Assembly: GCA_965112155.1 (NCBI GenBank)
Contig: OZ218098.1
From: Podarcis liolepis
Lineage: Eukaryota
Length of the DNA stretch: 64,000 nucleotides
Reading direction: 5' to 3' (one strand)
Under the pieces are notes generated by a model that saw only the letters and a list, made by a program, of their open reading frames with translations, made no database searches and was not told where the DNA came from. Of the stretch, positions 6,220-61,385 are shown one piece after another (within the stretch, counting starts at the first letter, position 1; each line of letters begins with the position of its first letter). Position numbers and translations under genes: made by a program.

Positions 6220-7700
6220 TGAAGCTCGTGTGTGTGTGTGCGCGCGCGCATACACACAAACCACACACCCAGGCGCGCGCTCTCTCGCTCTCTCTCCTTT
6301 CCCTGAAGTGACTTTCAAGCTCATCCACATACCACGTAGGCTGGTGGGAAGCAGGGCGGAGGGGAGACGGAAAAGCCAGTCGGAAGAAGCGAAGGAGGTG
6401 GGTTCGTGCAACGTTTCGGACTCTCCAAGTGGTGGAGAGGAGAGCCGGGGGAAGCAGGCCAAAAGAGGCGGCGGCAGGCAGAAGCAGCCTGAGAATTTCC
6501 TGTGAGGGGATCACAGGCCTCAGTCGGGGCAGGCGAGGAGGAGGAGGAGCAGGGCATGGAGCGCCCTTTGCTTTGGCGACCTCCGCCGAGGGCTGCGTGC
6601 GCCCCCGAGCTCGGCGCGCTGCCGCGGCGCTTCCTTTCCTCGCGTTTCTCCTGCCGCGCAATTGCGCTCGCGGCGCGCTAAAGGCGAGGGACCTTCCTCT
6701 CTCTTCCTCTTCCCCCGGTCCTAGCCCAGCCCTCTCCTCCTTCCCGCTGTGGCGGCTAGTCTCGGCTGGCCCTGCCCACGTTTCTCTCTCTGTCTCTCTC
6801 TCTCTCTCTCCCCGCTCCCTCCCACCCGTGGTCATGTGTTGCCTTTTTTTGTTGTTTGCAGTGGAAACAATTTGGCGTTCTTCGGCTCGCTCTGACCCAA
6901 ACCGCTACTCCAACCGGGAGTAGTGTAGACAGGCGGGCAGACAGAAAGGCAGGCAGGGAGGGGGGAGAGGTAGGTCGGGGGTGGGTGGGTAGGTAGGTAG
7001 GAGGGCGAAGCGAAGAGGGGGGGAATTGCAGCAGGGTCCCATGCTCCCCCCTCCCCACGGCTCCTGGCTCCCCTTCTCTCTCTCTCTCCCCCACTCGCTC
7101 CCTTCGGCCACATTGTTGGCTCCAGGCTGGGGGAGGAAGCGATGCCTCGCTCAGTCGGATGAAAAGTTTGCATAATGACCATGGAAAAGGCAGCAGTAAA
7201 AATCTAGAGCTCTTCCAAGCCCCAGGTAAGTTTGGGGATTTATCTATATTTTTTATTATTTTATAAATATATATATATATATATTTGTGCGTGCTTGCTG
7301 CTGCTGCTTGTTTTTTGTGTCTTGCTCTGTGTGTGGATTTTTGTTTTTTGAAAATTCATGGTTCCCTTGTTGGGAAGATTGCGTAAGATTCTCTGCAATG
7401 AAATCGGCAAGAAGAAGAAGCCGGAGTGGGTTGAGGGGGGGTGGGGAGAAGGGAGAGACACGCACGCATGAGAAGGTGGGTCAGCCCCACAAGAAGGCAG
7501 CCAGTTAGTTCGGGATGTCTGAAAAAGCAACGTGCTGGTCGTCTTAATTTCGACTCCCCCTCCACCCCGAAACTCCCGTGTGTGTTGGGTGAAGGAAAGC
7601 AGGAAGCGGATTGAGCTGAGAGTTGCAGCCACGACCCGAATATGTAATGTTACTGCTGGAGCTGCCTGATTTCCGAAGACGGTTGGCGAATAGAGTTGGC
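6220..7700 (+). promoter_or_regulatory. FOXN3: CpG-island promoter region of FOXN3
   Basis: Sharp rise in GC and CpG density (GCGCGC runs, GGCGG boxes), no recognisable TEs, a strong splice donor at 7226 and position 5 kb upstream of the first coding exon. Confidence 0.8.
7091..7225 (+). other. FOXN3: Probable non-coding first exon of FOXN3 (5' boundary approximate)
   Basis: Near-consensus donor CAG|GTAAGT at 7223-7231 inside the CpG island. The start site cannot be fixed from sequence alone. Confidence 0.6.
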
Positions 7701-8136: not shown

Positions 8137-8178
8137 GTCTCCTAGCAACGCCATTGATTGATTCGAATCCCGGCCAAT
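8137..8178 (+). promoter_or_regulatory. RFX X-box plus CCAAT box
   Basis: GTCTCCTAGCAAC (8137-8149) followed by GGCCAATC (CCAAT at 8174-8178) in locally CpG-retaining DNA. Confidence 0.45.
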
Positions 8179-10650
8179 CCGCGAGCTCCTTCTCCCCTTC
8201 AAATGTTTTTGACAAGTACAGTAGGGAGTGTAGCAAAGTGCAGCGAGAAAAACTGTCCCTGGCTGGTTGTCCTTTTAGTCCCTTCAAAATGACGCCCCCG
8301 TTGTATGTTTTTAAAAGAGACACATCTGTTTGAGCCTGGCCTGTAATGTATATATCAGTCCTGAGAAGCACTAACAGTGATCTGGCTTGATTCCCGCACT
8401 CCCCGCTTCTTGTCTGATTCTGCCATGTCAGTTTTACAACCGAGAATGCGAGAGATATTGTGCCTTTCTTCTACAACAATGAAGTTTGCTTTTAGACTTG
8501 CCCCTAAGCACTGCAGCTGTGGACATATCTGATGGAGCTACTTAACTGGCAGCAGATTAAAAAATGTTTGCTTAACTGCAGCACCTCCTCTGATTCGTGT
8601 GAAGTATGAAGTGCAGGAGAGAGCTGGAGTCTGACACTGGAAAGATTGGCTGGGGTTGGGAAACATCTTTTTTTTTAATGTGTTTCTGAGTCCCCCTCCA
8701 CACACACTTAAATCCAGGGCTAGGATTTCTGTCCTCTAACGTAACTTAGAGGCTACGTGATTGTCTGTCCTCGCACGGTACTGGGAACTTTTCCATGTCC
8801 TCCGTATGGAATTGTGACGCGAGGCTCCTGGATTTCAAGGTGAAGGGGGAAAAGAAGAAGTTTTGATTCCCTCCTGGAAATGGTTGTCCTCCTTTATATT
8901 AAAAACAAAACCCTGCACGTCCTTTGCAGCGTTTGCAAAACGGCGACATGTTTCAAATGTTTACAGCGGAGTTAAAACATGTAGAACCAGCTGACTAAAG
9001 CAAGGTTGTTGCTGTTGAAATGTGTATGGCCTAATGCAGCTTCAGGTTTGTTTTGTTCAAATGTGACGTTTCCCAGTAGCATATTCATTGTTTTAACAAA
9101 CTATTATTAGTAGAAACTCCAAGGCATTTACAATGTGATCCTAAATTGAGTTCAGTTGCATTCACTCCTAGCATGCAATGCTTTGGGTTGCTGCCCCAAT
9201 ATCACATGCTTTAAAGTGGCAGATGTGATGAAGTTCCCTCCGCTGTGTCTGCTATACTAAAGATAAGTGATTTGAGGATTGCAGCTTTAACTAACTTTGG
9301 TCAGGCTCGCACGCCACCGTGCAATTAAGCTTGATGCTTGAGAGCTGCAGGATTTGGAGCCCCTGTACCCGTCTCTTAAAGATATGTCACTAGTTTTTGT
9401 GTGAAAATTGGTGGTATGATATGGCCCTTTGGGAGAACGCGGGCAAGTAAGCAAATTAAACTGAAAGAGAGCAGCATGTCGTCATAGCAACAGTGCAATT
9501 AAATTATGTTGTCAGCCATGATATAATTTTCCTATTTAAAAGCTTGCTCATGGGACATGCGTTCTGTTTGTACTGAACTCATTTGGCTACACTACTCCCA
9601 ATTGGAAGTGGTGAATGGGGAGGAGGGTATAAATGATGTTTTAGGGACCCACACAAAGTGTGGTATAATTTAGGGCTTATTTTTCTATGCATCCCTCTCC
9701 CACCCCCTCGATACTTGAGTTCTTTGATTCATTTAAAGGGAAACATTTTCTGAAATAACTTCCCATTAAATGGTAAGTACAAATGAAAAGTTTAAATATT
9801 ACTAGAGCAACAGGAATATGGAAGTGATTTCCGGGGCATAAAAATCTTTTCCACCACATTGGGAGGGGAACTGGGGTATGTAATTTCCAACTTTTTTCAT
9901 TTTTAAACTACTTTTAGAAAACCTAATAAGTTACACTTTTCTTTTCATTTGCTGAGCTTGGCTTTACAGAGTTTGATATGAAATAACCTGTCCCCCTAAG
10001 ATTTTTAATTTTCATCTACGTCATTGTCCAATTTTATCCATTCTTTATTGCATGGTAATCTTTCTCTGCCCTCCCCATCTCTAATTACTTCTTATGTAAT
10101 TATAACATTCCCTTGTTTTAAAGCATCTCTTTGACAGCATCAAAACACAAATTCTCTGAAAAGTGTAATGCAGTGTTTTTAAATTAGAGGTTCTGCTAAA
10201 CACTTGTTTGACTCTTTTTTTAAAGAGCCAAGTTTCACTTCTCAGATGCTTTTTCTTTTAAAGCAGAAAGCCTTCCTCTTAGAGTATATGTTTGCTGACC
10301 TGTATAAAAATTGTATACCGCACTTCCTGTTAAAAACTTTATGCAGTGTACGTAGCATGATGTACTTCATGAGAACAATTGCAGTTGGTGCTAGAGTAAG
10401 GCAGACTTTCAATGTGCTTCATCATACAACTTTTGCAACCATACAAAAGTTTTTGTGCTCTTAAATGAATTAAGAATAGAACAGGTACCAACTCCTTTCT
10501 TAAATAATCAAATGCTTTGCCTTAGGCCTTTGGTAGAAGTGTAGCCTGTTGTGGATCATATTGGTGCTGATGGTAGAAATATGGCCTAGAGAGCTACAGT
10601 CCTAACCCCACTTACCTGGGAGTAAGCCCCCTTGAGTTCATTAGGACTTA

Positions 10651-11861: not shown

Positions 11862-12185
11862 TCAAGAAGGACCCCTAGAATATATGAGTACCTTTCTCTC
11901 CACTTTAGAGCTTTGCAAGAAGGCAAAAATGAAGCATCTTCATTTGTATGCCAGCGATTGAAATCTCATTTCTGCTCTAGCTTCTGAATCTTCCTGCTTA
12001 ACAAGCCTGGATGTGTGTTTATGTTATGTGAGTCTGTCTTCTTGTTTTTTTAAAAAAGTAGGATTCATAAAAGGCCAAATTGTAGACTGGGGAAAAGCTA
12101 CCAGAATGTTGTGATGCTGTCTATACCTTTACCAGCTAACACTCTTTTTAAAAATTTGGATTTATTACCAGGAGTCTCCGTCTAA

Positions 12186-12728
12186 ATGGGTCCAGTTATG
12201 CCTCCCAGTAAGAAGCCAGAAAGCTCGGGAATTAGTGTTTCCAGTGGATTGAGCCAGTGTTACCGGGATAGAGACTTAGCAAAGACGCTTCACGACGATG
12301 AGGACTTAGACTTTCCTTTACCTGCCCTCCGGTTGGAAAAAGGTCCCATGGAGGATGAAGAGCTCACCAACTTGAACTGGTTGCACGAGAGCAAGAACTT
12401 GCTGAAAAGTTTCGGGGACTCGGTCTTAAGAAGTGTTAGCCCAGTACAAGACCTTGATGACGACACCCCTCCATCACCTGCTCACGCCGACATGCCCTAC
12501 GATGCCAAGCAAAACCCCAACTGCAAACCACCCTACTCCTTTAGCTGCCTCATATTTATGGCCATTGAGGATTCTCCAACCAAACGGCTGCCTGTAAAGG
12601 ATATATACAACTGGATTTTGGAACACTTTCCTTATTTTGCAAATGCCCCCACTGGATGGAAAAACTCTGTGAGGCATAATCTGTCGCTGAATAAGTGTTT
12701 TAAGAAGGTGGACAAAGACAGAAGTCAG
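12186..12728 (+). CDS. FOXN3: Forkhead box protein N3 (CHES1), first coding exon (exon begins 12172; codons 1-181)
   Basis: [27 protein letters not shown]-terminus, LTNLNWL motif and forkhead [38 protein letters not shown]...[15 protein letters not shown] match recalled FOXN3. Acceptor AG at 12170-12171; donor CAG|GTGAGG at 12729 (phase 0). Confidence 0.97.
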
Positions 12729-21900: not shown

Positions 21901-22296
21901 TTAAGTGTCAGTCAGTTGCAGTCTGCTAATTTGGTTGGAGGCCTTCGCAAATGTTTGGGGACGTTTGCAAATGGCAGCCAGGCAAAGAGGAATGATACAG
22001 TAGCCCACCATTTGGGGATCAGCTCTTGTACAGGAATAAAGGAACAGGAACATTTGCAAATAAGGGATCAAGAAGATAATAGTCCACAGCCAAAAGGGTA
22101 CGGACAGCAGCCGTGTTTTTAAGGAGTGCATCCAGGTGGTTTCTTCTCTCAGTTTTTCAGGAGGTTGCTGGATGTGCTCCAGTGCCAGTCTGTTGTAAGT
22201 CTCATTGATTTCAAAGACATAGTAAAATGCTGCTGCACTTGCTATTAAGTATAATCCCACACCAATCCATCCCATCCTCTGACAGAAGTTCATCAT
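21901..22296 (-). CDS. LYSET: Lysosomal enzyme trafficking factor LYSET/TMEM251-like ORF, 131 aa, nested antisense in a FOXN3 intron (functional gene vs duplicated/pseudogene copy unresolved)
   Basis: MMNFCQRMGWIGVGLYLIASAAAFYYVFEINETYNRLALEHIQQ...PFWLWTIIFLIPYLQMFLFLYSCTRADP...GYCIIP...KASNQISRLQLTDT* aligns end to end with the recalled short TMEM251 isoform; the upstream RAWR is also retained; no frameshift or internal stop. Confidence 0.9.
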   Translation of the reverse strand: MMNFCQRMGWIGVGLYLIASAAAFYYVFEINETYNRLALEHIQQPPEKLREETTWMHSLKTRLLSVPFWLWTIIFLIPYLQMFLFLYSCTRADPQMVGYCIIPLCLAAICKRPQTFAKASNQISRLQLTDT

Positions 22297-22319
22297 TCTC
22301 CATGCTCTGAACCTTCCTC

Positions 22320-22500
22320 CGCAGGAAAACACGGGAATGAACAGGCAGGAGGAGGGAGCGCGGGTGGCCCAACCCTTGTCACCCCACCGCCGCTCCTGCC
22401 GAGCCGCTCTTTGAGTCCATCCCTTCCACCGCCCACCTGGGGCCTGCCCCTTTCGAGCTCTGCTTCTGGTGCCGTGTGACATGGCTGCCGTCACGTGAGG
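22320..22500 (-). promoter_or_regulatory. GC-rich 5' region of the LYSET copy with a CLEAR-like E-box
   Basis: GTCACGTGAG at 22490-22499 (9/10 to the CLEAR consensus GTCACGTGAC), local GC/CpG enrichment, candidate donor CAG|GTGGGC at 22436 (-). Confidence 0.5.
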
Positions 22501-22911
22501 AGGGTCCAAAACCAAGACTTTCTGTGCTTCACTTCAGACTGTTTCCCCTTTACAGGCAGTGTCACCTTCACTATTGTCCACAAGCTGATGAGTTTGATGT
22601 CTGTAATCTTCAATACTTGCTAAATAAATAAAAGGGGAACGTAAAAGAAAAGAGTTTAGGAGATGACATATTTCTGAAATCTTTTGAGAGGCTGCAGTGG
22701 ATGCAAAATAGCCTTTTACAGTTCTTGTCAGCTGTGAGAATTATGGGCACTGGTTAATTGTGTTTGCTTCTCTCAGCCCCTTCCCGGCCTAAAATAAATG
22801 GTTTATTCGTGAAGTTCAGTTTTTTGCTTTTTGCCTTTCACTGGACATCAGTGCTCTATGAAGGGATTTCAGGTGCTGTCTTCTTCCTAACAAATAATGC
22901 AACCTCTGCAG

Positions 22912-26233: not shown

Positions 26234-26290
26234 GTCTCCGTAGCAACGAGTTTGCAGTTGATATGGAAAGTAAGCAGTTGCCCTAGCAAC
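26234..26290. promoter_or_regulatory. RFX X-box cluster (candidate intronic enhancer)
   Basis: GTCTCCGTAGCAAC (26234-26247), GTTGCCCTAGCAAC (26277-26290) and a weaker GTTGATATGGAAAG between them. Confidence 0.55.
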
Positions 26291-27504
26291 AGAGTTACTG
26301 ATGTGGCAGATCCTCGGCTTTCAGGGTAAAGGCCTGTGAAGCTTCAAATGCATTATGCAGGTCTGCTGTAATTATGGAAGTGCCCACTAGTGCTGTTGCC
26401 GATTAAGGGGACCGTGAACATCTTTTGTTGCAGCCTTTGTTTTTTTGGGAGGCATGGAGCTGGCTAAAGTATTTGCCCTTTGGGGGCCTTTGGGTAGCAA
26501 GGTGTTGGCTGCAGACCATGTGGCTTTGTGTGTGTTTATAGGAAACGGGAACGAAGTTCACCGTGAGGACATTTGTTCCCATCCTTTGCCTTACTGATGG
26601 GAGTTCCCTTCTGAGCCTATGAGGCAGAGGCTGCCAGCCATAAATTTTCTGCTGCCTTTTCTTGTCTCTCTCCTCCTCCTCCTCCTCCTCCTCCTTCCTC
26701 CCAACTGTCCTTCCTATGATTTCTCCTCTTGGCTTCTGTGAACCTCCTTGCAGAAGTTGACATTCTCCTTGCCCTAGTTTACTTCTCTCCTCTCCTCTTC
26801 CATGGTATCTCATCAAGTATTTAAGCTTCTGGGAAGTGCCTCCTGCTAAATGATGGAGAATTTCGGTTCAGTAAGGGGAGGAGAACATTCCAAAGCCTGC
26901 TGAGCATTTGCTATTCGACTTCCCACCCCCAGGGAAGTCTAGCTGTATTCCATTATACAGGCAAATGCTGGGATCACCCTTTCTTTACAAGAATTGGTGC
27001 TTGCAGAGAAGCTTCATCTGAATGCAGTTTTGAAAACCCAAACATTAGCATCCCTTTGTGTGTACCTGCATGCGAATGGTGACACGCACCACTATCTCAA
27101 GATTTGTGGGGTGGGTGGGTGTGGTTGCTTTAAGGCTAAAACTCTAGATTCCTTCTCCTTTACTGTTACTGTCTTGAATCTGTAGTGGAGGCAATTTTCA
27201 GTAAGTGTGTTTAGGAATCTGCATTCACTAGGATCAAAGAGTTTGGCAGTCCATATAGAGTCCTAACGATCTGAGCTTACATTCCTAAGAAGGAAAAAGA
27301 AATCTGGTCCTAGTGATTGCTGAGCTGTGAAGTTTTGTGATATGGGCAGGTGTTTTGCTTTTTGCAAAAGAAGAGAGAGTTTCTGGTAATATTCATTCAA
27401 ATCTTCTGTACCAGTTGCTTCTGGTGCCTTTTCTTGTCTCTCTCCTCCTCCTCCTCCTCCTTCCTCCCAACTGTCCTTCCTGGTACAGGGGCAGGTGAAT
27501 TGTA

Positions 27505-28886: not shown

Positions 28887-29410
28887 CACCAGATGTAGGT
28901 ATGTTTGGTTTGAAATAAGTACCAAAGAGTTATGGAGGGTTTACACCCAAGCTAGTGTACAATGGACTAAGAGCTAAATCAGGTTTCTCAGATGTGTCTC
29001 TGTGTGTGTTGGCTTGCTTGATAACGGGAGGGGGTGGGAAATTTGAATACATTTTCATCGAAAAAAGAGATTAGGTAGTCATGTAAGAACAAGCTGTTTG
29101 TTCCGTCACCACAACATGGGAAGACAGTTGCATAACCTTGTTTTGGGCAATCAAGTAGGAGAGTGTTGCGCTGAAATCTTGTTTGCAAGAGCAGGCTGGG
29201 ATGGTGTGTTTTTTAAATAAAACGATTAAAATTATAACAAGTTCCTTCCCTTGTGTTACTTTGCTCTGTTGCGTTGCATTATACCGCTGCTATCTGCAAC
29301 CCACCTAAGTATGCATTTTATATCGTATCTTTCAGTCAAATTATTCTCACGGTAGCCTACATGTTGTAATAAAACATACCTCATTGAAACTCATCAGATA
29401 TACACGTGTG

Positions 29411-30712
29411 CGCACATCCCTTCCAATCAGGATTTGAGCCCCATCATGGGACTGAAACAGCCTTGGTCCCGCTGGTCAATGATCTCCAGCAGGCTAGGTA
29501 CAAGGGTGAAAGCTGTTTCCTAGTTCTGCTGAATCTCTCAGCAGTTTTTGATACCATTGACCATTGTATCCTTCTGGACCGACTAGAAGGGTTGGGAGCT
29601 GGGAGCACTGTCATACAGTGGTTCCGCTCCTTCCTCCTGGGCCGTGTCCAGAAAGTGGTGTTGGGGGATGAGTGTTCAGACCCCTGGACTCTCACTTGTG
29701 GAGTGCCTCAGGGCTCCGTCCTCTCCCCCAAGCCTTTCAACATCTATATGAATCCGCTGGGAGAGATCATCAGGGGTTTGGGCTGAGTGTTCACGAGTAT
29801 GTGGATGATACCCATCTTTACCTCTCTTTCAAATTGGAACCAGTGAAGGTCCTGTCTGAATGTCTGGAGGCGGTTAAGGATGGATGGTGGCTAACGGATT
29901 GAGGTTGAATCCCAACAAGACAGAAGTGCTGTTTTTTTTGGGGGGGGGCTCCCTGGTCCTGAACAGGGTAACTGTGCCCCTGAAGGACCGAGGTACAGCC
30001 TGGGAGTCTTTTTGGACTCCTAACCGTCCATGGAGGTGCAGGTCAATTCTGTGACCAGAGCAGCTGTCTTCCAGCTCCATCTGGTACACAGGCTGAGACC
30101 TTCCCTGCCTGTAGATTTTCTCACCAAAGTGGTGCATGCTCTGGTTCTCGCCCGCTTAGATTAATGCAGTGCGCTCTATGTGGGGCTACCTTTGAAGGTG
30201 ACTCAGAAACTACAACTAATCTAGAATGCAGCAGCAAGACTGGTGACTAGGAGTGGCTGCCAGGACCATATAACACCAGTCCTAATGGATCTTCACTGGC
30301 TCTCTGTATGTTTCTGAGCACAATTTAAAGTATAGGTGCTGACCTTTAAAGTCCTAAACAGCCTTGGCCCAATATACCTGAAGGAGTGTCTCCACCCACT
30401 TCGTTCAGCCCGGACGCTGAGGTCCAGCTCTGAGGGCCTTCTAGCGGTTCACTCACTGCAAGAAGCGAAGATACAGGGAACCAGCAGAGGGCCTTCTCGG
30501 TAGTGCTGCCCTTCTCTGTGAACATCCTCCCTTCAGATGTCAAGGAGATAAAGAACTGCATGACTTTTAGAAGATATCTGAAGGCAGCTCTGTATCGGGT
30601 AGTTTTTAATGTTTGGTGTTTTTCTATGTTTTATATACGCTGTAAGCCGCCCAGAGTGGCTGGAAAACCCAGCCAGATGGGCAGGGTATAAATAATAAAA
30701 TTATTATTATCA
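29411..30712 (+). mobile_element. L2-clade LINE, 5'-truncated, decayed reverse transcriptase
   Basis: QSGF...HGTETAL, LVLLNLSAVFDTIDH, GVPQGSVLSP and YVDDT (YADD-like) motifs with frameshifts; 3' end GCCGCCCAGAGTGGCTGG...GGGTATAAATAATAAAA(TTA)n. Confidence 0.9.
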
Positions 30713-33454: not shown

Positions 33455-33815
33455 CAGTGGTGCCTCGCAAGACGAAATTAATCCGTTCCGCGAGCCTCTT
33501 CGTCTAGCAGTTTTTTCGTCTTGCAAAGCAACCCTATTAGCGGCTTAGCGGATTAGCGCTATTAGCGGTTTAGCGGCTATTAAAGGCTTAGCGGCTATTA
33601 AAGGCTTAGCGGATTAGCGGCTAAAAGGCTATTAGCGGCTTAGCGGTTTAGAAAAGGGGGGGACAAAAAAAAAATCGGAACACTTGCAAGACGTTTTCGT
33701 CTTGCAAAGCAAGCCCATAGGGGAAATCGTCTTGCGAAGCAGCTCAAAAACGGAAAACCCTTTCGTCTAGCGGGTTTTCCGTCTTGCAAGGCATTTGTCT
33801 TGCGGGGCACCACTG
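33455..33815. mobile_element. Tigger-like MITE with an internal (TTAGCGG)-type minisatellite
   Basis: TA|CAGTGGTGCCTCGCAAGACG...TCTTGCGGGGCACCACTG|TA; tandem TTAGCGG variants at ~33535-33650. Confidence 0.85.
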
Positions 33816-40451: not shown

Positions 40452-43400
40452 TAGTTTGTAGACTGCAGATCAGTTGCCTTCAGCACAATAGTACCAAACT
40501 CTGTTGTCTTAACAGGTTGCCAGTGTAGATTTCCCAGTTTACTGTTTATAGAAGCAGAAGTTGGTCGAAACTTCACATTTTAGAAATTCTAAACGATGGT
40601 GACTTGACTATTCGAAATTCAAAATATCGCTAAAGAAAGAATAACTGCAACTCTTTCGTGCTGACTGGCAAAAACTGGATATTGGTTCACAAATGGTGGG
40701 AAATCAGGTTGTGAATTTATAAATATACCCTACATTCTATAGTGTCCAGTACCAAATTATTGTACCATTCAGTTTGTGATATACTGGTCCCCCACTATTC
40801 CCACCCACCCAAGCTTTTAAGGCATTGCAGAATGAAAGATCTCTTTCTTGCTCAACTGATGGAACTCAAGTGCGGAAGAGATTGCTGGAAGGAAAGCGTG
40901 TTTTGCTCCCCCCCCCCCACCTCTTTGAGAATCGGTAGGACAGCGCTGGCTTTTAAGAGGAGCATTCATCACTGTACAAGTTCCCTTTTGTACATGGCAA
41001 AGCTTCTCTGCCCTTGGCAACCTTGGGCCACGGTTTTGCTGATACAACCAGACATAAATGGTCACAGTGGGCTTGATTTGTTGAATTACCGCCCTACGGA
41101 AATGCTCCCCCCCCCCCCCAGTGCTGGTGTTTCCATGAGTTGCAGCACATGCTAGTGAAGGAAGCCAAAATCCACTCTGGTAATTCTTATTTTTTATTTT
41201 TTAAAAATTGTTTTCGCATCCTTTCCTTTAGTGAAAAGCAGATGCATTATTTAAGCCAGCATTTCTTCCCCAAAGTGCATTTCTGAGAGATTATTGCATG
41301 CCTCAGGTGCGCTGAAAAGCTCAAGGCATCATTTCTTTAAGCATTCAAGAGCCACAATTTCCTACATGCCGCATTGCCCAGAAAGTCTTAATTCGATACA
41401 AAATGGATATTGTTATTATTATTTTAAAAGGAGCGGCTGAACAGCCCCGTTGTTGCATTTCTTGTGAAATTGTTATTGGAAAAGCCTTCGCGAAATTGGG
41501 AAAACTCTTCTTCAGGGGGAAAGTCTTTCCATAATTGAGATGAAGGAAGACTGCAATAATGCAGAGTGGTGTAATCCTCTGCTGACTTTTGGCCTATTAG
41601 TGGCTCTCAGTTGTACTCCCCGCCCTCGCCTTTTCGGATTTGGTGTGCCAGTAAGGTTGGCTTTTATGGCAGCTGTGGTGCAGTCAATACGATTAGGGGG
41701 CACAAACTGCTCTTCCCCTTAAAATCTCGGAATGGTGAATAAGCTCTGCCGGTGGATTCATGTTCTCATAGCAACCCTCTAATGTGCTCCCATCACCAGA
41801 TGCATGGCCAAAATTTTCACAGCTGAATGCCTGAAGTCAATGGGGGACCAAAGTGGTTAGCGTCTCTGAATAATCCATCTGGCTGCTCTGTTTTGATGAT
41901 TAAATGTGTGTTTCGGCTCTGCAGACACCCATGAAAATTTTGGATGCCCGGTTTCCAAAATGTCAGTCAGAAGGCACAGTATGGCTTCACTTAGCTGAAT
42001 GGCTTGTGAGACAATATCTACAACATGCAGATAATCAGAAGTTCATGCCTCCTTGTAGGGCATTATGACATGGAGCGCTGGAGATGGCGGGTGGAGCATG
42101 CATTGAATTAAGAAGTAGGAATATCAGCTAGTTTGGGGGGGGGTTTAATGTCTTAGGAGCCAATATAAAACACAGTTCTGTAAGTAGGGTTGAGCTTTAT
42201 ATCAGCATAGAGTTTGCTTAGGATGGAGCAGGTAGAATGGGAGCCCTCCAGCTGGTCTACAACTTCCATCAGTTCTAGCCAGCAAAGCCAGTGGCCATAG
42301 ATGATAGGAGTCATAGCCCAAAACACCTGGAGCATACAGAATGGAGGAAGGCTGATACAACATTTGTTTGTGGCCTTTAAAATATAGTTAAATGTGTATA
42401 GGGAAGTTATACCATTGACCCTAATGTGCGCACACACTCTTTAAATTTGATTGAAAGAGATGCATACTTAGTATCGCCTGAGGTTAAAATACTGTGTGTT
42501 TGTGAGAGACAGAGACAGAGAATGGAGTTAAGCATTCGATCAAAAATATTTTGGAAGCAGGTAAAGTTTGGCAGAGGAAATTGACTTATCAGCTATTACT
42601 ACTGGATGTAGTAGGAAAAACCAGATTCTGGAGTAGGTGAAAATCTGGCACAAATTAATTCCTGTGTGCTGTTGTCCACACCAACATGACATGCCTTTAT
42701 TGCTTCAACCCAATTGTATAGGTTTCAGAGGAGCACTGAATGAGTTTGGGACTGTTGGACTTTAGGTTTGCTTTCAGTTCTTCAGCTGCTGTGTTGGGTG
42801 TGCCAGACTGGGTCATGGACCAACCTAAATTAAATTGCACCTGGAATCCAATCATTTTCTTTTGTCCCCCCCCCCTTTTTTGAGGACACACACAAAGGTA
42901 AGGTGGGGGAGGTAATGCAGAAAAATGGTAGTGTTGAGAGAAGTAGAAGGATATAATTGTTCTACAGTGGGCTGGTTCTCATATGACATGGTAAGCTAAA
43001 CTATGACTAACTGTGACCCCCTCGTAGTTAGGGAGGAGAGCTTAGCCACAAGCCTGGGTTCAAATAACATGCTAAGCCCAAACCTTGATTTAGCTCAGCA
43101 TGGCTCAGGATTAAAAGGGACCAGTAGTTTGTCTTTCTGTGTCATACAACCCAGGCCGTAGGGTCTGATGGAGGATGCTCTCGTATGGCCTGCTTTTCTG
43201 CAGATGGGGCCTTGCTGCTGTTGATTTCTTTCTGAAAGCTGGCTTCCCCTGCCCAACCCCCAACCCAACCCCCCAAATGTTTTTTACATCATTTGATATT
43301 AGTGGCCACTTTGAGCAATGATTGTAATGAGGTAGCGAGATAAAAATATTTTAAATGGCTAAAAAAATAGACAGTAAATTCCATGATTGTAGGAGGCTGG

Positions 43401-46877: not shown

Positions 46878-47602
46878 TACCTGCTTCGGATGAGTAAAAA
46901 AATGGATGCAGGCAACTAAGTAAGTTCAAACACGTGGACCAGTAAATGTTTCTGTGGCTATTTGTGAGTTTGGAGCTGTGACCGAGGAAACAACCAGCAC
47001 CAGTTTTCGTTCATTAATCACTGAAGGACAAGTAAAGCAAATGAATGAATGACTGTAGCAAGGCTTGCAGTGTTGTGCTTGAGGAGTTTGAAACATTGTG
47101 TTGCAAAAGTGATCCGGGAGCTCTTAATCCACTCCATATGCACTACTTGTTGCCTTGGAGACAAATGTAATCAAAAGGGCTCTTCCTTCCCACCCCTTTC
47201 CTCACTTTTTATCATAAGATTCTGTTGAATTACGGCTTTCGAAGCGTGGTGGAGTATCATGCGAAATGTTGGGAAGATGGAAATTCAATCACTGAGGGAT
47301 TGGTCTAAACTCCATTGATTTGGAAAAGTGAAGGGTTGTTTTTATCCTTCCTGAAGAACCACACAAGGTGTTCTTCACACCTTTTCCATATCAAATAAAA
47401 TATTGTCAGTGTCTGCTTTAAAAAAAACCTTTAGCATTTCACAACTCACATGTAATCATTCTGCTAGTGGGATAAGGATACTTCAACCTGGAACTTAGCT
47501 CACTGACAGCTCTCAACTGAAAAAGGCTGTAACATCGAGCAAACTTTCTCTTTATTGGAAGTTCTGGTATGTGATCAGCCTTTTTTGGCTGCTTCACATT
47601 TT

Positions 47603-48269: not shown

Positions 48270-48480
48270 CAGTCATACCTCGGGTTAGGAATGCTGAGGT
48301 GCGTTTTCGGGTTGCGGACCGCACCGAACTGGGAAGTACCAGAATGGGTTACTTCTGGGTTTCGGCGCCACGCACATGCACAGAAGTGCCGAATCGCGTC
48401 ACACGCGTGCGCAGACGCAGCGCTGCGGGTTGCGAGCGTGCCTCCTGCGCAGATCACGTTTGCAACCCGAGGTATGACTG
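48270..48480. mobile_element. Tigger-like MITE
   Basis: TA|CAGTCATACCTCGGGTT...AACCCGAGGTATGACTG|TA. Confidence 0.85.
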
Positions 48481-50469
48481 TAAGTTGTTTTGCTTTCCCT
48501 TCTTCATGTAAGCCTCCTACCTATGTGAATGTATATATGTATGTGTTATTTTAAATTCCTTTAAAATACTTTTTAAATCTGTGCTTTTATTAGTGGTTCT
48601 GAGAGGCTTTAATACTGTCTCCTCTCCTGAATATTCCCATCCATATTGGTCATTAGAACAACTTGTAACTAAGGGTGTGAACCCAGGTTCACTTCTTTCC
48701 TCCTTCTCAGTCCATTTTCCTTTTGTGCCGTGTCTTTTTATTGTAAGCCAGGGGACACAGACTGACTTGACTTTATTGTGTTGTATTGCATTGCACTGCA
48801 TTGTGGTTATTTGTAAGCTGCTTTGGGAGCCTTTTATCAATCCTCCTGACATAGCAAAACCTACCACAGTTGCCTGCTATATTTCTGTGTTAATTCATGC
48901 CAAATATTTAATAGACAAGCTGCTGAAGCTGTACAAGAAACCAGGCTACTGTAGCATTCTAGGCGTTCCTCCTCACCAAATCACATCTACCCTGGATGCA
49001 TCTTGGAATTTTCACCAGCTATATTGCTTGTATGATATCACAAAAAAGAATGGCTATAGTAGCTCTTACTTGTGAACTTTAAGAAGAACGGCTAAGATTT
49101 GCTCATTGCTAGTTCACATGGCCATTGAGTCCGCAGCCCATCATTTCAGGTTATTCTAGTTTCACTCTAGTTTTCTTGTAGTAAAGTGGTGCTCTTTAAG
49201 TACTGTTTCGAACATAGGTTTAATAGCAATGCCCTGAGCCATTACCTGTAGTGGAATGCTTGGATGGTTGCCTTGCCAAAGTAAGATAGAGTCATCTGTA
49301 TGAATTGTAATTGAATTTGGGGATGGAAGGGAAACATTCCCTATGTAAACCTTCCTGACTGACCTGATCTGGGAGTCCCTGAAAAGTTGTAATTCCTTCT
49401 AATAACGGTGGCACATTCCCAGTAGTGTAATAAATGGGGATATGATGTGTTGTCCATCCTGGTATTTTTTTGAACATGCCCCTCAGAGAAGATTAGGGCA
49501 ACGAGCACAGAGCCCGTTGTGCAAGCAGAAGTCCTTACGCTAACAGGAGGCAGACTTCGTGGGATACAACCCACTGTGCTTGGTTCCTGAATCAGTGTTG
49601 TTTCTGCCACTCAAGAGTGCATTTTTTTCTGTTAGTGCAAGAACTTCCACTTGCACAACAGAATTCCCCCTCCTTGCCTTCTTCCACATATAGTTCTGCT
49701 CTCAAGTTCTGTTTGCACTGACAAGGACAAGTTGGTTGAATTCCACCCATTATTACCAGTTGCAAGGGAATAGAAGTGGAATCGTCTGAACTTGAAAATA
49801 ACTAGTAAATTTTGTTTAAGCCTTACCTGTTGCAGGCAAGCTAAACTGATTACGATTCTCTCAGGCTAAAACTGAAATTCTAGATCTCCCAAACAGAAAC
49901 CTAGGCTTCATATATTCAGATTTATTTTAATTATTACACTTGGTGTGAACCAGACAGTAAGTGGAGTTGAGGGATTAAGTTTTTTGTGGTAAGGTGGAAC
50001 TCATGCTTTCTGGTATTAGGCTTTCTGGTATTAGTTTTTAAAATAAGTTGCTTAGGGAGCTTAAGCCCACCTTCCTCCAAGTTTCTTTTACAACACCCAG
50101 AAGAGAATAACAGTTTTAGTTTCTTGTCTGCAAAGCTTATTTATCTTCCAACTTGGCCGTGAAGAATAACTATGATATTTCAATATGTGGTATGTGTGCT
50201 GCATTGACAGAGAGGGAGAGAGAATTTCCAGAAAACTGCTGAACAGAGCACAGTAGTAGCTATTTTCACAGTTTACATACAATATCAGACTGCCCCAATT
50301 CCTTCTTAAACATCAAAACTGAAATACAGCTGCACCTAAACTAGCATTTGTAGCAGAAAAATGAGATCTGTTGTTCTTCATAAGCAGGAAAGAATATTCT
50401 CGGTTTTCTGAAAAACTTAGAGATATACTTACATCATTTAAAATGATATTTTTTTATCCTCCTTTGCAG

Positions 50470-50606
50470 AGTATTGGGAAAGGGTCTTTATGGTGTATAG
50501 ACCCAGAATATAGACAAAATCTTATCCAGGCTTTGAAAAAGACCCCCTATCACCCATATTCGCATGTGTTCAGCACCCCTCCAGCGTCTCCTCAGGCATA
50601 TCAAAG
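50470..50606 (+). CDS. FOXN3: FOXN3 second coding exon (137 nt; end of the forkhead domain)
   Basis: [45 protein letters not shown] continues in frame from DRSQ; acceptor TTTTTTTATCCTCCTTTGCAG, donor AAG|GTAAGA. Confidence 0.96.
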
Positions 50607-52160
50607 GTAAGAAAACTTGAATATCATTTTAACATGGGCAGTTGCTTTTGTCTTGTCTCAAATACTGGATCAGGCAAGGTCTAGAAATTGGGGAGGGCTG
50701 CTAACAACATTATGCAGTCTAGCTTTTACTAGAATTCCACTGCTTGATGGGCTAGCAAAGGCGATTACTGCGCTTATCACAAATTAGTTGTACTTTAACT
50801 GTTGAAAGATCCAAAGTATGCACTCTTGGTATGCACTCTTGGTATTTAGCTCTAATTGTGCATATTTGGGATCTTTTAAGGCACAACTAATTGTGATAAG
50901 CGATCCCAGGTATGTAATCTCGCTTAACAGCACAGGATGCACCTTTGCTGTTTAAACCAAAACCCACCTAATTCACTGTTTTTTTGCAAGAAACACAGCA
51001 ACCTGTTAGCTCTCAGTGGGCCGCTGGAAACTTATTGGTGGCCCAGTGGAGAGAAATTAGACCACAGTCTGTCTTCTGCCCACTCCCTGCCATAAAGGAC
51101 TACAGCAGCTGCAGAAAGCATGGTAGTTCCCTAAACTTATTGGTACTTAAATCGTCGGTTAGAGCCGCAGTATGTCTTACCGGTTTTGGAGGAACCGACC
51201 TGTTCATTTGCAGTTTGTCATTGTAAGTTTCCAGCGCTCCTTTGGATGTTTCTGAAAAACATTCTAGCTGCTTGTGCTCAGGGCCATAGCTGGAGTTTTA
51301 AAAGGGAAAGGAAACCAGCTGGGTTTTCCTCTTTGCTTGCATGAATAAATGTGTACCTCTTTGGAAGCAGGTCGCTGGTGCTTTTTGTCCTCCTAGCTCC
51401 CTACTTGGTAGATCGCTTTGTCAACACAGCTATATAAACTTTTGCTTCTAGGTAACAGGAAGCTTCCCTTGCTGTTGTGGTTACCTGTTCTGTGAGGCGA
51501 GTGTGTCTGTGCATGGTTATGCCTAGTTGCCATAGCTCACTCCTGTTCATCTTGTAAAAAAGGTGAATCTAGGACTGGTGACTTTGAAATGTCATTGGAG
51601 GGGGGAAATGGAAGCACTTGAACAGTGATTGTTTGTTTCTTGTTTGTCCTACTCAGGGGAAAGTATGAGATAATTACGGGGTATCAAACCGCCTGCTTTT
51701 CATAACAACCATTCGGGAAATGAATTATTTGTTTCTAGAAACGGAGGATCAAATCACATCTGCACATAGGACAACAATAGGCAAATTTAAAAATAATAAT
51801 AATTTAGAAACCTGTGTAACCTGTTGCACAAATTAGATCTAAGCTACACCCTACCTGGCTGCAGATATATATGTCTGTTGCCCGTGTTAAAAGCCAATAA
51901 GGAATTTTAAATATGTATTTAGATGGGGATTTTGGGGGTGGTGCAATACTCTTCTGCCCCCCCCCCCCAAGTTATATCACTTCTTCCCTGCTTTTAAGAA
52001 GCCAGCAACATGCAAAGTAATTTCGTTCTGGTAACGTTAATGAGGTTCTCGTGCATCTGTGTTGATCCGCGCGTTCCGTCACATGACCCAGACAATCAAT
52101 CTTCAGGCAGAGATTGGGAGGAACAGCTGGGCTTTTGCAGGAGACGGCTGTATGTCTGCC

Positions 52161-52331
52161 CTTGCTAGGCGATTAGCGTGATGGTAACCATAGCGACTAG
52201 AACGTCTCCATAGCAACGCATAGCTGAGACAGGTGCAGTTGCATCACAAGGCTGTTGCCTGGCAAAAGGACAGGCCATTAGTACTAAGATATACGCTGTT
52301 GCCTTGGTAACGGATAACCCTACATAGCAAC
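52161..52331. promoter_or_regulatory. Dense RFX X-box cluster (candidate intronic enhancer)
   Basis: GTAACCATAGCGAC (52184), GTCTCCATAGCAAC (52204), GTTGCCTGGCAAA (52254), GTTGCCTTGGTAAC (52298) and CATAGCAAC (52323) within 170 bp; CpGs retained; no TE recognised. Confidence 0.65.
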
Positions 52332-52647
52332 TACAGTGGACTTGCAGCATTTTTACCCTCCTGATTAAAGAAAATAATAATAATAAGAGACATTCTACCA
52401 GGTTGTTGTTGTTGTTGTTGTTTTAATCTATGATCAGCAGCACCGGGAGCTCTCACTGCCAGGGTATCTGTTGCTAAAAGGTGTACTGAATGTGAGATTG
52501 AGCACTGATGACAGAAGGAGGTGAAGAGCTGCGCCTAAGGAATTGATACTAGCTGTAGCAAGTTGAATATTGGAGGTTAAGGCAGCCATCTCATGTTTGC
52601 CACCATTGAACTTAATGAGGTTTATGTCTTGGTAGACATTATTAGTT

Positions 52648-53003
52648 GGGACGTGGGTGGCGCTATGGGTTAAGCCACAGAGCCTAGGACTTGCCGATCA
52701 GCTGGTCGGCGGTTCAAATCCCCGCGATGGGGTAAGCTCCCGTTGCTCGGTCCCTGCTCCTGCCAACCTAGCAGTTCGAAAGCACGTCAAAGTGCAAGTA
52801 GATAAATAGGTGCTGCTCCAGCGGGAAGGTAAACGGCGTTTCCGTGTGCTGCTCTGGTTCGCCAGAAGTGGCTTAGTCATGCTGGCCACATGATCCGGAA
52901 GCTGTATGCCGGCTCCCTCGGCCAGTAAAGCGAGATGAGCGCCGCAACCGCAGAGTCAGTCACGACTGGACCTAATAATGGTCAGGGTCCCTTTACCTTT
53001 ACC
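52648..53003 (+). mobile_element. Sauria SINE, full length
   Basis: Head and tail motifs; perfect 14-bp TSD TAGACATTATTAGT (52633-52646 / 53004-53017). Confidence 0.92.
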
Positions 53004-53216
53004 TAGACATTATTAGTAGCAGCAGCAATAGTGAGATCAAGCATTTTTGCCCTGCTCTTTAGTAAAAGGTTTCCAGAGTTCTATAGGCAGGTCTGTGCTC
53101 AGGCTTACATTCTAAAATACATGACATACAAGGGGAAAGGGATGGAGAGGGAGGAGGAAAAAAGCAAGTTAGGGCACTAGTTCTTGACGACCACCTGGGA
53201 AGAAAACAGTTTAGGG

Positions 53217-59339: not shown

Positions 59340-60867
59340 AAATAGACTCTAGTTCACACAAGTTTATGCCAGTGAAAATGCTTTTAAGATGCTACAGGCA
59401 GTCTTACTATAAGAAGGCACAATTCGTTTCTTTTGAAACATTCCTATCCTGAATTTTCCTTAACTGGGCATAAAAAGAATAAATTACGAAAGGTGTTAAA
59501 AATAAAATTGCCATACTTTCCCTTCCCTCATTTGGAAAACTCGAGCAGTCCTTGGCATTTTAAGCAATTTCTAGTTAAGATTCTGGGATATTGGATTACC
59601 TCCTGATTGGTAAAGCACTTCATTTCTCGTTTACTGAAATTGCTAATGCTAGTGCCGTTGCACAAAGGGGCTTCTGGGAAGCTGTTAAAAGACGCAATTT
59701 GATGTTGAAATAATTTCACCAAATGCTGGCTGTCAGTTCTTCAATAATGGACGTGCTTATCTATATAACTTTGTGTGTATATAGGAGAAACATTCAGCTT
59801 GTCCAAATTGTCTTGTGCTGGAAACTTGTATAACTAGTTTTCAGAAACAATTAGTGTCTCCAAAGGAGGAGCAGGCTCCCATTTGCCAGTCAGCGTTTTG
59901 TAAGAAGTTGCAAAGTGAAATTGTGGTTTTAGGTGTGCAGATGCTATCTTCAAAGGAAAGTTGCGTGGCAGCATTCCATCGCCTCCCGCAAAGCTCCGAA
60001 AGACCGACACCTGAAATTAATAACTGACTGAAATTAATAAACTACACGCAGAATAACTTTTAATTCCCCCAATATTAAGATGCCTCTAGGGGGCTGGATT
60101 AACTGAAGGAATTACAAGGTTTATACAGCTCTGCTGGCAGGATCCCGTGGAGGCAAATTGACCCACTGTTTGTGTCTTTCAAACCTCGCAGAGAAACAAA
60201 TATTGAGGTTTGTCGCCAACTGTTCCAGAGCTCATTCTGCTGAATACTTAGCTGCCATCCATTGTTTTCTATTATAGTTTTCTGCGACATTTTGGAGCAG
60301 CGACAGCATCAGAACACAGGACTCTGCCACATGCTGGATGCTATTGAACACTATAGCTCTGCTCATGCGACAGACATCTCTGTATCCTCTCCCTCTTTGT
60401 CCCTTCCAGTGCCTCACATACCCTTAAAATCGGTTCCATAGGGCTGCAGGATCCTTCAGAGCAGATTTGAGGGCATGTGGGAAAAGAGTATATGAAAGTC
60501 CCATTGTTCATGTGGATTTTCAATCATGCAGCATTGGATGCAAACCACTGAATTTTCCCAGTCTGGTGCCGTCCAGATGTTTTGGACTACACCTTCCATC
60601 AGCCCCATCCAGAACTCTGGTCATCACTAACCTTTGGAAGGTACCAATTTGGGAAACTATGGTCTAAACAAGAGGCATACAGCCTAAGGAGCACATTCCC
60701 TAGTGAGCAGCCTTCTGTGTGCCTGCATATGGGTGGTGGGAACAAGTGAGTCGCGAGCAATGGGTGCAATTTTTGTACATTAAGCTATATTCCAGCCACC
60801 CAAATTCAGAGGTTTCTACACATAACAAACAGCACATCACCCAAAATTTGGAGACATGCTAAAGGTA

Positions 60868-61385
60868 GACCTCACCTGGAGTACTGTGTCCAGTTCTGGG
60901 CACCACAGATCAAGAAGGACACTGACAAACTGGAACGTGTCCAGAGGAGGGCAGCCAAAATGGTCAAAGGCCTGGAAACGATGCCTTATGAGGAACGGTT
61001 AAGGGAGCTGGGCATGTTTAGCCTGGAGAAGAGGAGGTTAAGGGGTGATATGATAGCCATGTTCAAATATATAAAAGGATGTCATATAGAGGAGGGAGAA
61101 AGGTTGTTTTCTGCTGCTCCAGAGAAGCGGACACGGAGCAATGGATCCAAACTACAAGAAAGAAGATTCCACCTAAACATTAGGAAGAACTTCCTGACAG
61201 TAAGAGCTGTTCGACAGTGGAATTTGCTGCCAAGGAGTGTGGTGGAGTCTCCTACTTTGGAGGTCTTTAAGCAGAGGCTTGACAACCATATGTCAGGAGT
61301 GCTCTGATGGTGTTTCCTGCTTGGCAGGGGGTTGGACTCGATGGCCCTTGTGGTCTCTTCCAACTCTATGATTCTGTGATTCTGT
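60868..61385 (+). mobile_element. CR1 LINE 3' end, young, ORF2 C-terminus intact
   Basis: [11 protein letters not shown]...[31 protein letters not shown]...[23 protein letters not shown]; terminal CTATGATTCTGTGATTCT. Confidence 0.93.

Follow-up and report, generated by a model that had tools for sequence, protein, structure and literature searches.

An array of RFX X-boxes in a FOXN3 intron of a reptile, a possible two-way dock for activation and self-repression

We describe an array of RFX X-boxes in an intron of the reptile FOXN3 gene, at positions 52161-52331 of the 64-kb stretch of DNA analyzed here (the window). Six full or partial X-boxes fall within these coordinates; the array really consists of four good sites in ~130 bp plus two weak companions. 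The array itself is real and probably functional. On balance, we lean toward a model where it acts as an intronic FOXN3 cis-regulatory element, a two-way RFX dock embedded in a loop of feed-forward activation and self-repression.

The window holds part of FOXN3, which runs on the plus strand. An open reading frame at 12186-12728 encodes a Forkhead domain; among solved structures FOXN3 is the closest relative, the printed alignment showing 69 identities over 70 residues, which bears out the host gene proposed in a previous reading made from the sequence alone (the sequence-only reading). The first coding exon (12172-12728, plus strand, 557 nt, with the ATG at 12186) accounts for most of the forkhead domain, equals the mouse first coding exon in length (557 nt), and includes the RFX-binding LXXLXWL motif, present in the reptile protein as LTNLNWL. 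The second coding exon (50470-50606, plus strand, 137 nt, AG/GT) ends 1,555 bp before the array, in agreement with the 1.6 kb given previously. Toward the 5' end, a CpG-rich region (~6.0-8.3 kb) that includes a splice donor (7225) likely represents the promoter and first exon of FOXN3; the intron from this likely first exon to the first coding exon spans 4.9 kb, and the array lies ~45 kb from the FOXN3 start.

An X-box is a 13-15 bp imperfect inverted repeat made of two 6-bp halves, and four sites of the array have this architecture at 10-19 bits. These scores derive from a matrix counted from 31 validated X-boxes published in PMC3245922, with spacers of 1-3 for the bits quoted; a hand-set matrix of our own (0/1,000 shuffles) was written after the sites were known and is circular, and thus the verdict rests on the published-site matrix. 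No strand is assigned to features unless indicated. The array opens with a weak 13-bp X-box (52161-52173, 7.8 bits) and a medium 14-bp X-box (52184-52197, 10.3 bits), each with one half (52168-52173 and 52192-52197, respectively) in which a CpG stands at the T of the consensus; the 52184 site is a candidate methylation-dependent site. A strong 14-bp X-box follows (52204-52217, 16.8 bits); it is one base off the validated worm bbs-5 site, and its 3' end overlaps a forkhead-like ACGC core (52216-52219). Past a CAGGTG E-box (52230-52235, plus strand), which separates the two halves of the array, lie a good 13-bp X-box with a single mismatch (52254-52266, 13.3 bits) and the highest-scoring X-box in the window (52298-52311, 18.9 bits); the reverse complement of the latter is the validated worm dyf-2 X-box, letter for letter, and an ACGC core sits just 5' of it (52293-52296). 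The last member, 20 bp past the 52298 site, is a half site (52318-52331, plus strand) with an intact right half (52324-52331), scoring below 3 bits with the 31-site matrix and 9.4 bits with the hand-set one. Both 14-mers singled out by the sequence-only reading, at 52298-52311 and 52204-52217, are confirmed, and its count of five to six full or half sites agrees with the six seen here, of which four are good, 52161 is weak, and 52318 is a half site. The upstream flank (52020-52160), where a CpG-raised patch (52020-52331) starts, is probably part of the element. It contains a half site (52028-52035), an ACGC core (52071-52074), a CACATG E-box (52080-52085), a reverse CCAAT (52113-52117), and a CAGCTG E-box (52124-52129); together, array and flank hold two CAGSTG E-boxes and three ACGC cores within 250 bp, a content matched by 19 of 6,360 windows. 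Farther upstream (51444-51540), the two partial sites reported before are present at 51444 (10.3 bits) and 51526 (9.6 bits), with a forkhead RYMAAYA match nearby at 51420; yet both are middling, and their cluster is not among the significant ones.

With the 31-site matrix, the array is the best 200-bp X-box cluster in the window. None of 500 block-wise dinucleotide shuffles reached its score under either of two spacer settings, and column-permuted matrices did so once in 250 for each setting, at a tandem repeat near 33.6 kb. Similarly, a weighted mismatch score of 13 was absent from all 600 local dinucleotide shuffles scanned window-wide, and four sites with ≤2 mismatches in 200 bp occurred in 6/600. 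Among random motifs, the mismatch score was reached in 794 of 30,825 draws (220 of 16,821 at matched abundance); the draws repeat, and the top ones fall in microsatellites. The bare count of six sites with ≤3 mismatches is ordinary, being reached by 164/600 shuffles, and it is thus the four good sites that carry the signal. Overall, the clustering noticed in the sequence-only reading exceeds chance in all three sets of shuffles (0/600, 0/500, and 0/500), and the array is a homotypic cluster in the usual sense, that is, an above-chance grouping of several sites for one factor in a few hundred bases. Some observations nonetheless suit a non-functional array, due to chance, to a decayed local duplication, or to motifs that arrived with a low-copy transposon. 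The mismatch score is reached elsewhere in the window by permuted consensus motifs (3/359, at 33.5 and 40.2 kb). Two array sites (52251-52270 and 52295-52314) are 80% alike, with 16 of 20 bases in common, short (AAT)n and (GTT)n runs follow the array, and our repeat detection reached second copies within the 64 kb only, which low-copy elements may escape. Strong X-boxes with unrelated flanks at three other loci, and RFX binding of mouse Foxn3 at parallel positions, argue against this reading, which we regard as very unlikely. At 33537-33651, a GC-rich tandem array of period 8-26 sits inside a small inverted-repeat element and is a source of false-positive clusters in the permutation controls.

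Outside the array, four further sites score at least 16 bits (8137, 26234, 26277, and 47149); shuffles yielded a mean of 0.77 such sites, and at least four of them in 6/1,000. The first (8137-8149, plus strand, 16.8 bits) is found 0.9 kb past the likely first-exon donor at 7225, with an overlapping ACGC and a CCAAT at 8174. A second cluster (26234-26307) combines two strong and two weak sites, with GACGC overlapping the first; it was equaled in 1/500 shuffles with a 2-bp spacer and in 19/500 with spacers of 1-3. A strong single X-box (47149-47162, 18.8 bits) is accompanied by a weaker one at 46978, and at 41670-41864 a single X-box (41762) occurs with two CAGCTG, one RYMAAYA, and one GACGC. 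Counting the array, strong X-boxes are present at four FOXN3 loci, with unrelated flanks, and this recurrence argues for selection over a single insertion. Of nine strong sites picked after the fact, four contain or adjoin an ACGC core, compared with a background of 6.5%; ACGC partly overlaps the AAC end of the X-box. The 26234-26307 cluster was not cited in the sequence-only reading; a duplication between it and the array was considered and rejected, the sole match being 16 bp that correspond to the X-box itself (nhmmer E 0.079). More X-box-like sites are seen in the first intron, at 9478-9491 (with CpG at the T position) and 9798-9811.

The immediate surroundings of the array agree in part with their earlier description. 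The array is indeed not a tandem repeat (0/84 Tandem Repeats Finder rows overlap it, and mean flank identity is 0.23). CpG retention holds for ~300 bp only, since 52020-52331 shows a CpG o/e of 0.78 with 15 CpG (top 6%), whereas 50.7-52.5 kb as a whole has 0.42 (a level reached by 26% of 1.8-kb windows) versus 0.37 for the whole window. The absence of transposable elements is overstated: 48423-52645 has no second copy inside the window, but a long palindrome lies in the stretch. Its core (50771-50902, ~130 bp) is single-copy (z -6.7, 0/200 shuffles) and of the type left by small DNA transposons; it could be an old small transposon, or an intronic hairpin that might affect splicing. The palindrome region as a whole (50754-50949) has a 13-bp tandem repeat in its loop and starts 150 bp past the second coding exon. 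Within 51013-51236, a 12-bp direct repeat (51028, 51133) and a 13-bp perfect inverted pair (51022, 51224) are possibly another decayed element. A repeat of 350 bp, present at least seven times in the window and once at 52646-53004, resembles a Sauria SINE, which makes a squamate the probable source of this FOXN3. Rfam returned no gathering-score match in the window and one chance match (E 0.61) over the 50.9-kb palindrome. A structured noncoding RNA was rejected for the array, given the lack of an Rfam family and a fold z of -1.06, with 27/200 shuffles as good. A cryptic exon or TATA promoter was likewise rejected, as 51900-52500 contains no TATA match, strong donor, or plus-strand acceptor. 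The latter result also weighs on the possibility of an RFX-driven intronic alternative promoter, of the kind active in testis or ciliated cells, from which a short FOXN3 transcript or antisense RNA would start: the X-boxes, CCAAT, CACATG E-box, and local CpG retention do resemble a small promoter, and NF-Y motifs are enriched in RFX peaks, yet GC is only 0.50 and no Rfam family lies above threshold, and we find this explanation highly improbable.

Other features of the window are unrelated to X-boxes. An intact single-exon TMEM251/LYSET frame (21904-22533, minus strand; ORF 21907-22293) lies antisense inside a FOXN3 intron, with a Pfam E-value of 2.8e-67 and 130 of the 131 positions of the profile covered. 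Upstream, it is continued in frame by a GC-rich stretch, and a TCACGTGA E-box lies at ~22498-22491. It is a candidate retrocopy or relocated gene; neither of two versions of the exact protein (0/2) was matched in the protein collection searched. The segment 63330-64000, GC- and CpG-rich, with open frames on both strands and unrelated to any recognizable FOXN3 exon, is a candidate inserted element or retrocopy fragment. A LINE reverse-transcriptase fragment is found at 29388-29783 (RVT_1, E 5e-15), and 60750-61304, which gave no Pfam match, we take to be a CR1-like 3' fragment.

RFX binding along mouse Foxn3 offers a parallel to the reptile loci. In ependymal cells, RFX1 peaks lie at +1,630, +17,678, +46,656, +52,822, and +53,711 from the Foxn3 start, RFX3 peaks at +1,622, +17,717, +52,795, and +53,689, and the RFX2 peak within 60 kb downstream at +53,733 (PMC7498320 Table S8; GEO GSE145324); the comparison covers peaks up to 60 kb downstream of the start, leaving out those upstream or at +160 kb and beyond. 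The strong reptile loci are placed at ~+1.1, +19.2, +40.1, and +45.2 kb, and the mouse loci were fitted to them with a slope of 1.15, merging the last two mouse peaks, using the six top sites only, and with a 4.4-kb residual at the second locus. Random four-locus sets fitted equally well in 1.6-1.8% of cases, in a post hoc comparison chosen with both lists known. The probable mouse counterpart of the array is the pair of peaks at +52.8/+53.7 kb, and orthology is suggested by a parallel of position rather than by sequence alignment. Along the same gene, the 8137 X-box parallels the mouse +1.6 kb peak and the 26234-26307 cluster the RFX1/RFX3 peak at +17.7 kb.

This correspondence depends on where the mouse start and second coding exon lie. 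The start-to-start distance between Ttc8 and Foxn3 is 473,185 bp (Ttc8 row, PMC7498320). The mouse Foxn3 start used is proximal: according to mm9 exon coordinates and assuming equal assembly spacing, it precedes the first coding exon by 0-31 kb. Given the Ttc8 start, this distance would presumably be ~4.8 kb, like the 4.9-kb intron in the reptile. With a proximal start, the mouse peak pair falls after the first coding exon and before the one at mm10 99,291,236-301. The Foxn3 exon rows found in PMC5153657 and PMC8355340 comprise the first coding exon and one later exon of 65 nt, and coordinates of the mouse second coding exon were not found in the parts consulted of the PMC4498915 supplements, PMC4634137, PMC4542305, and PMC4996846. 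With that exon unplaced, the peak pair may precede it and match 46978/47149 instead; in this alternative mapping, 41762 would pair with +46.7 kb, and the array would have no mouse ependymal peak.

Is FOXN3 the target? Foxn3 is absent from the rows listed in Table S1, which gives the genes whose expression differs in ependymal cells deficient in Rfx; its first occurrence in the supplement is in Table S5, and the flanking genes Ttc8 and Efcab11 do change, both falling. RFX redundancy may hide an effect on Foxn3 in the knockout. Alternatively, the array could be an RFX-bound silencer or loop anchor aimed not at FOXN3 but at a distant cilia gene, TTC8/BBS8 or EFCAB11, the two that respond in mouse. 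Mouse peaks are assigned to Ttc8 too (+419 to +420 kb), and Rfx2 has been proposed to join distal elements to promoters by dimerization. However, the Ttc8 promoter has RFX peaks of its own, the FOXN3 start is only ~45 kb off and has its own X-box, and reporters of Foxn3 introns respond to the Foxn3 circuit; we thus deem a distant target quite unlikely.

This circuit has been described in mouse, where two intronic Foxn3 enhancers are bound by Foxn3, Rfx3, and Foxn4, both being activated by Foxn4, Ascl1, and Rfx3 together and repressed by Foxn3 (bioRxiv 10.1101/2024.10.28.620684). When the single Rfx3 site of enhancer 2 was mutated, most activation and all repression were lost. In the same work, 81% of Foxn3 peaks overlap Rfx3 peaks, some co-bound peaks show RFX motifs without a Foxn3 motif, and forkhead proteins bind the Rfx3 dimerization domain via LXXLXWL; on its own, Rfx3 gave less than two-fold activation with each of three cilia-promoter reporters, and it is presented as a dock for Foxn4 activation and for Foxn3 repression alike (10.1101/2024.10.28.620684). 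Foxn3 RNA is up in Foxn3 mutants of two knockout lines (10.1101/2024.10.28.620684; PMC12304973), and the ACGC core is the Foxn3 motif (PMC12304973). Transposed to the reptile, the dock model that we favor would have several RFX dimers (RFX1-4 type) loading on the array, with little activation by RFX itself. Where present, FOXN4 or FOXJ1 and a bHLH factor would bind RFX plus nearby E-boxes and ACGC cores, thereby increasing transcription of FOXN3, perhaps with RFX-RFX looping from the array to the promoter-proximal X-box (8137). In turn, the FOXN3 protein would bind the same RFX dimers through LXXLXWL, displace the activators, and recruit co-repressors; repressing through its own dock, the FOXN3 gene would thus limit itself. 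The array lacks GACGC and RYMAAYA, and forkhead factors are therefore read as arriving mainly through RFX. It would be one of about four RFX modules along FOXN3, and its sign would be activating when FOXN4/FOXJ1 prevail and repressing when FOXN3 does.

The sequence-only reading had instead envisaged a plain, strong RFX-dependent enhancer, with strength scaling with X-box number. That the array is an RFX-bound regulatory element appears well supported by motif statistics and by the mouse peaks and enhancers; its strength does not. Four good sites in 130 bp, a CpG content raised over ~300 bp, E-box and CCAAT neighbors, and an Rfx3-bound intronic Triobp element that drove a reporter in mice are what such an enhancer would predict. 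Yet, apart from the less than two-fold effect of Rfx3 alone and the missing Foxn3 in the knockout table, most intergenic cochlear Rfx3 peaks are without open chromatin, one tested intronic element was inactive, and multiple X-boxes are non-additive in worm, where a second X-box repressed rather than added (PMC3245922). A strong activating enhancer is accordingly unlikely in our estimate. Little net change on RFX loss would be seen with a two-sign dock, an element aimed at another gene, or a non-functional element.

A bolder extension of the dock model would make the array an amniote-wide, multi-dimer RFX platform that sets FOXN3 dose, and hence the ceiling of the cilia program, with a methylation dial; we hold this to be rather improbable. 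Methyl-dependent RFX1 sites exist, and methylation of the CpGs at 52161 and 52184 would turn both into better X-boxes, 5-methyl-C being read as T, adding docks and not silencing. RFX1/5 are listed among proteins preferring methyl-CpG, and thymine mimicry is reported for HOX factors (PMC6923324). Half-sites with CpG at the T position are not special by themselves, since 52 occur in the window, and CpG decay could equally be the origin of X-box halves. As for spacing, sites are 23.5, 20, 49.5, 44.5, and 20 bp apart in the array and 23, 20, and 17 bp apart in the 26234-26307 cluster, values too few for a statistical test; the 23 + 20 bp arrangement in both clusters and the repeated 20-bp step may be a grammar for adjacent RFX dimers that forkhead partners bridge.

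RFX factors switch on cilia genes, and recent work has established FOXN3 as a repressor of such genes that acts through RFX3 and limits its own expression. Both self-repression by Foxn3 and the control of its introns by RFX are already published in mouse, and the array reveals no new kind of element. If reptile FOXN3 has the chain of RFX modules of the mouse gene, the loop would be at least as old as amniotes and would have been found from motif content. The array is also a compact test of whether FOXN3 represses through RFX without its own DNA site, and of whether several X-boxes add, compete, or switch sign. The literature searched, which covered few subscription papers and whose supplements may hold a mouse counterpart, describes neither a multi-site FOXN3 X-box array nor such elements outside mouse.

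Several known systems resemble the array. The mouse Foxn3 enhancers share with it the gene, the intronic position, and the association of an Rfx motif with E-boxes and forkhead-type motifs. Enhancer 2 has one Rfx3 motif, two E-boxes, one FKH, and one FHL-N, whereas the array has four good and two weak X-boxes and two E-boxes, without FKH or FHL-N motifs, for which we take the letters RYMAAYA and GACGC. The enhancer-2 inventory occurs in 6 of 6,360 windows of 250 bp; all four motif types are found at 41670-41864 and not in the array, and thus the best-tested mouse element is probably not the array. By motif content, 41670-41864 is a candidate ortholog of enhancer 2, and the array, or else the 26234-26307 cluster, could be the counterpart of enhancer 1. 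The mouse peaks at +52.8/+53.7 kb agree with the array in gene and in the order and rough scale of the four RFX loci; the pair is 0.89 kb apart, versus 0.7-0.85 kb from the 51444/51526 sites to the array, and +53.7 kb is the sole in-gene peak common to all three factors (PMC7498320). These peaks are reported as positions, and several closely spaced RFX sites are found only at a minority of loci (PMC7498320). In Xenopus multiciliated cells, the Rfx2 scaffold and looping model similarly has RFX at distal and proximal sites docking a forkhead factor; there, however, Foxj1 activates cilia genes, and the main text does not include foxn3 (PMC5245798). Finally, worm F25B4.2, yeast RNR2-4, and human MAP1A display adjoining strong and weak X-boxes that tune expression non-additively (PMC3245922). 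In worm and MAP1A, the sites number two and lie close to the promoter or within the first exon, whereas the reptile array comprises up to six, 45 kb into a transcription-factor gene.
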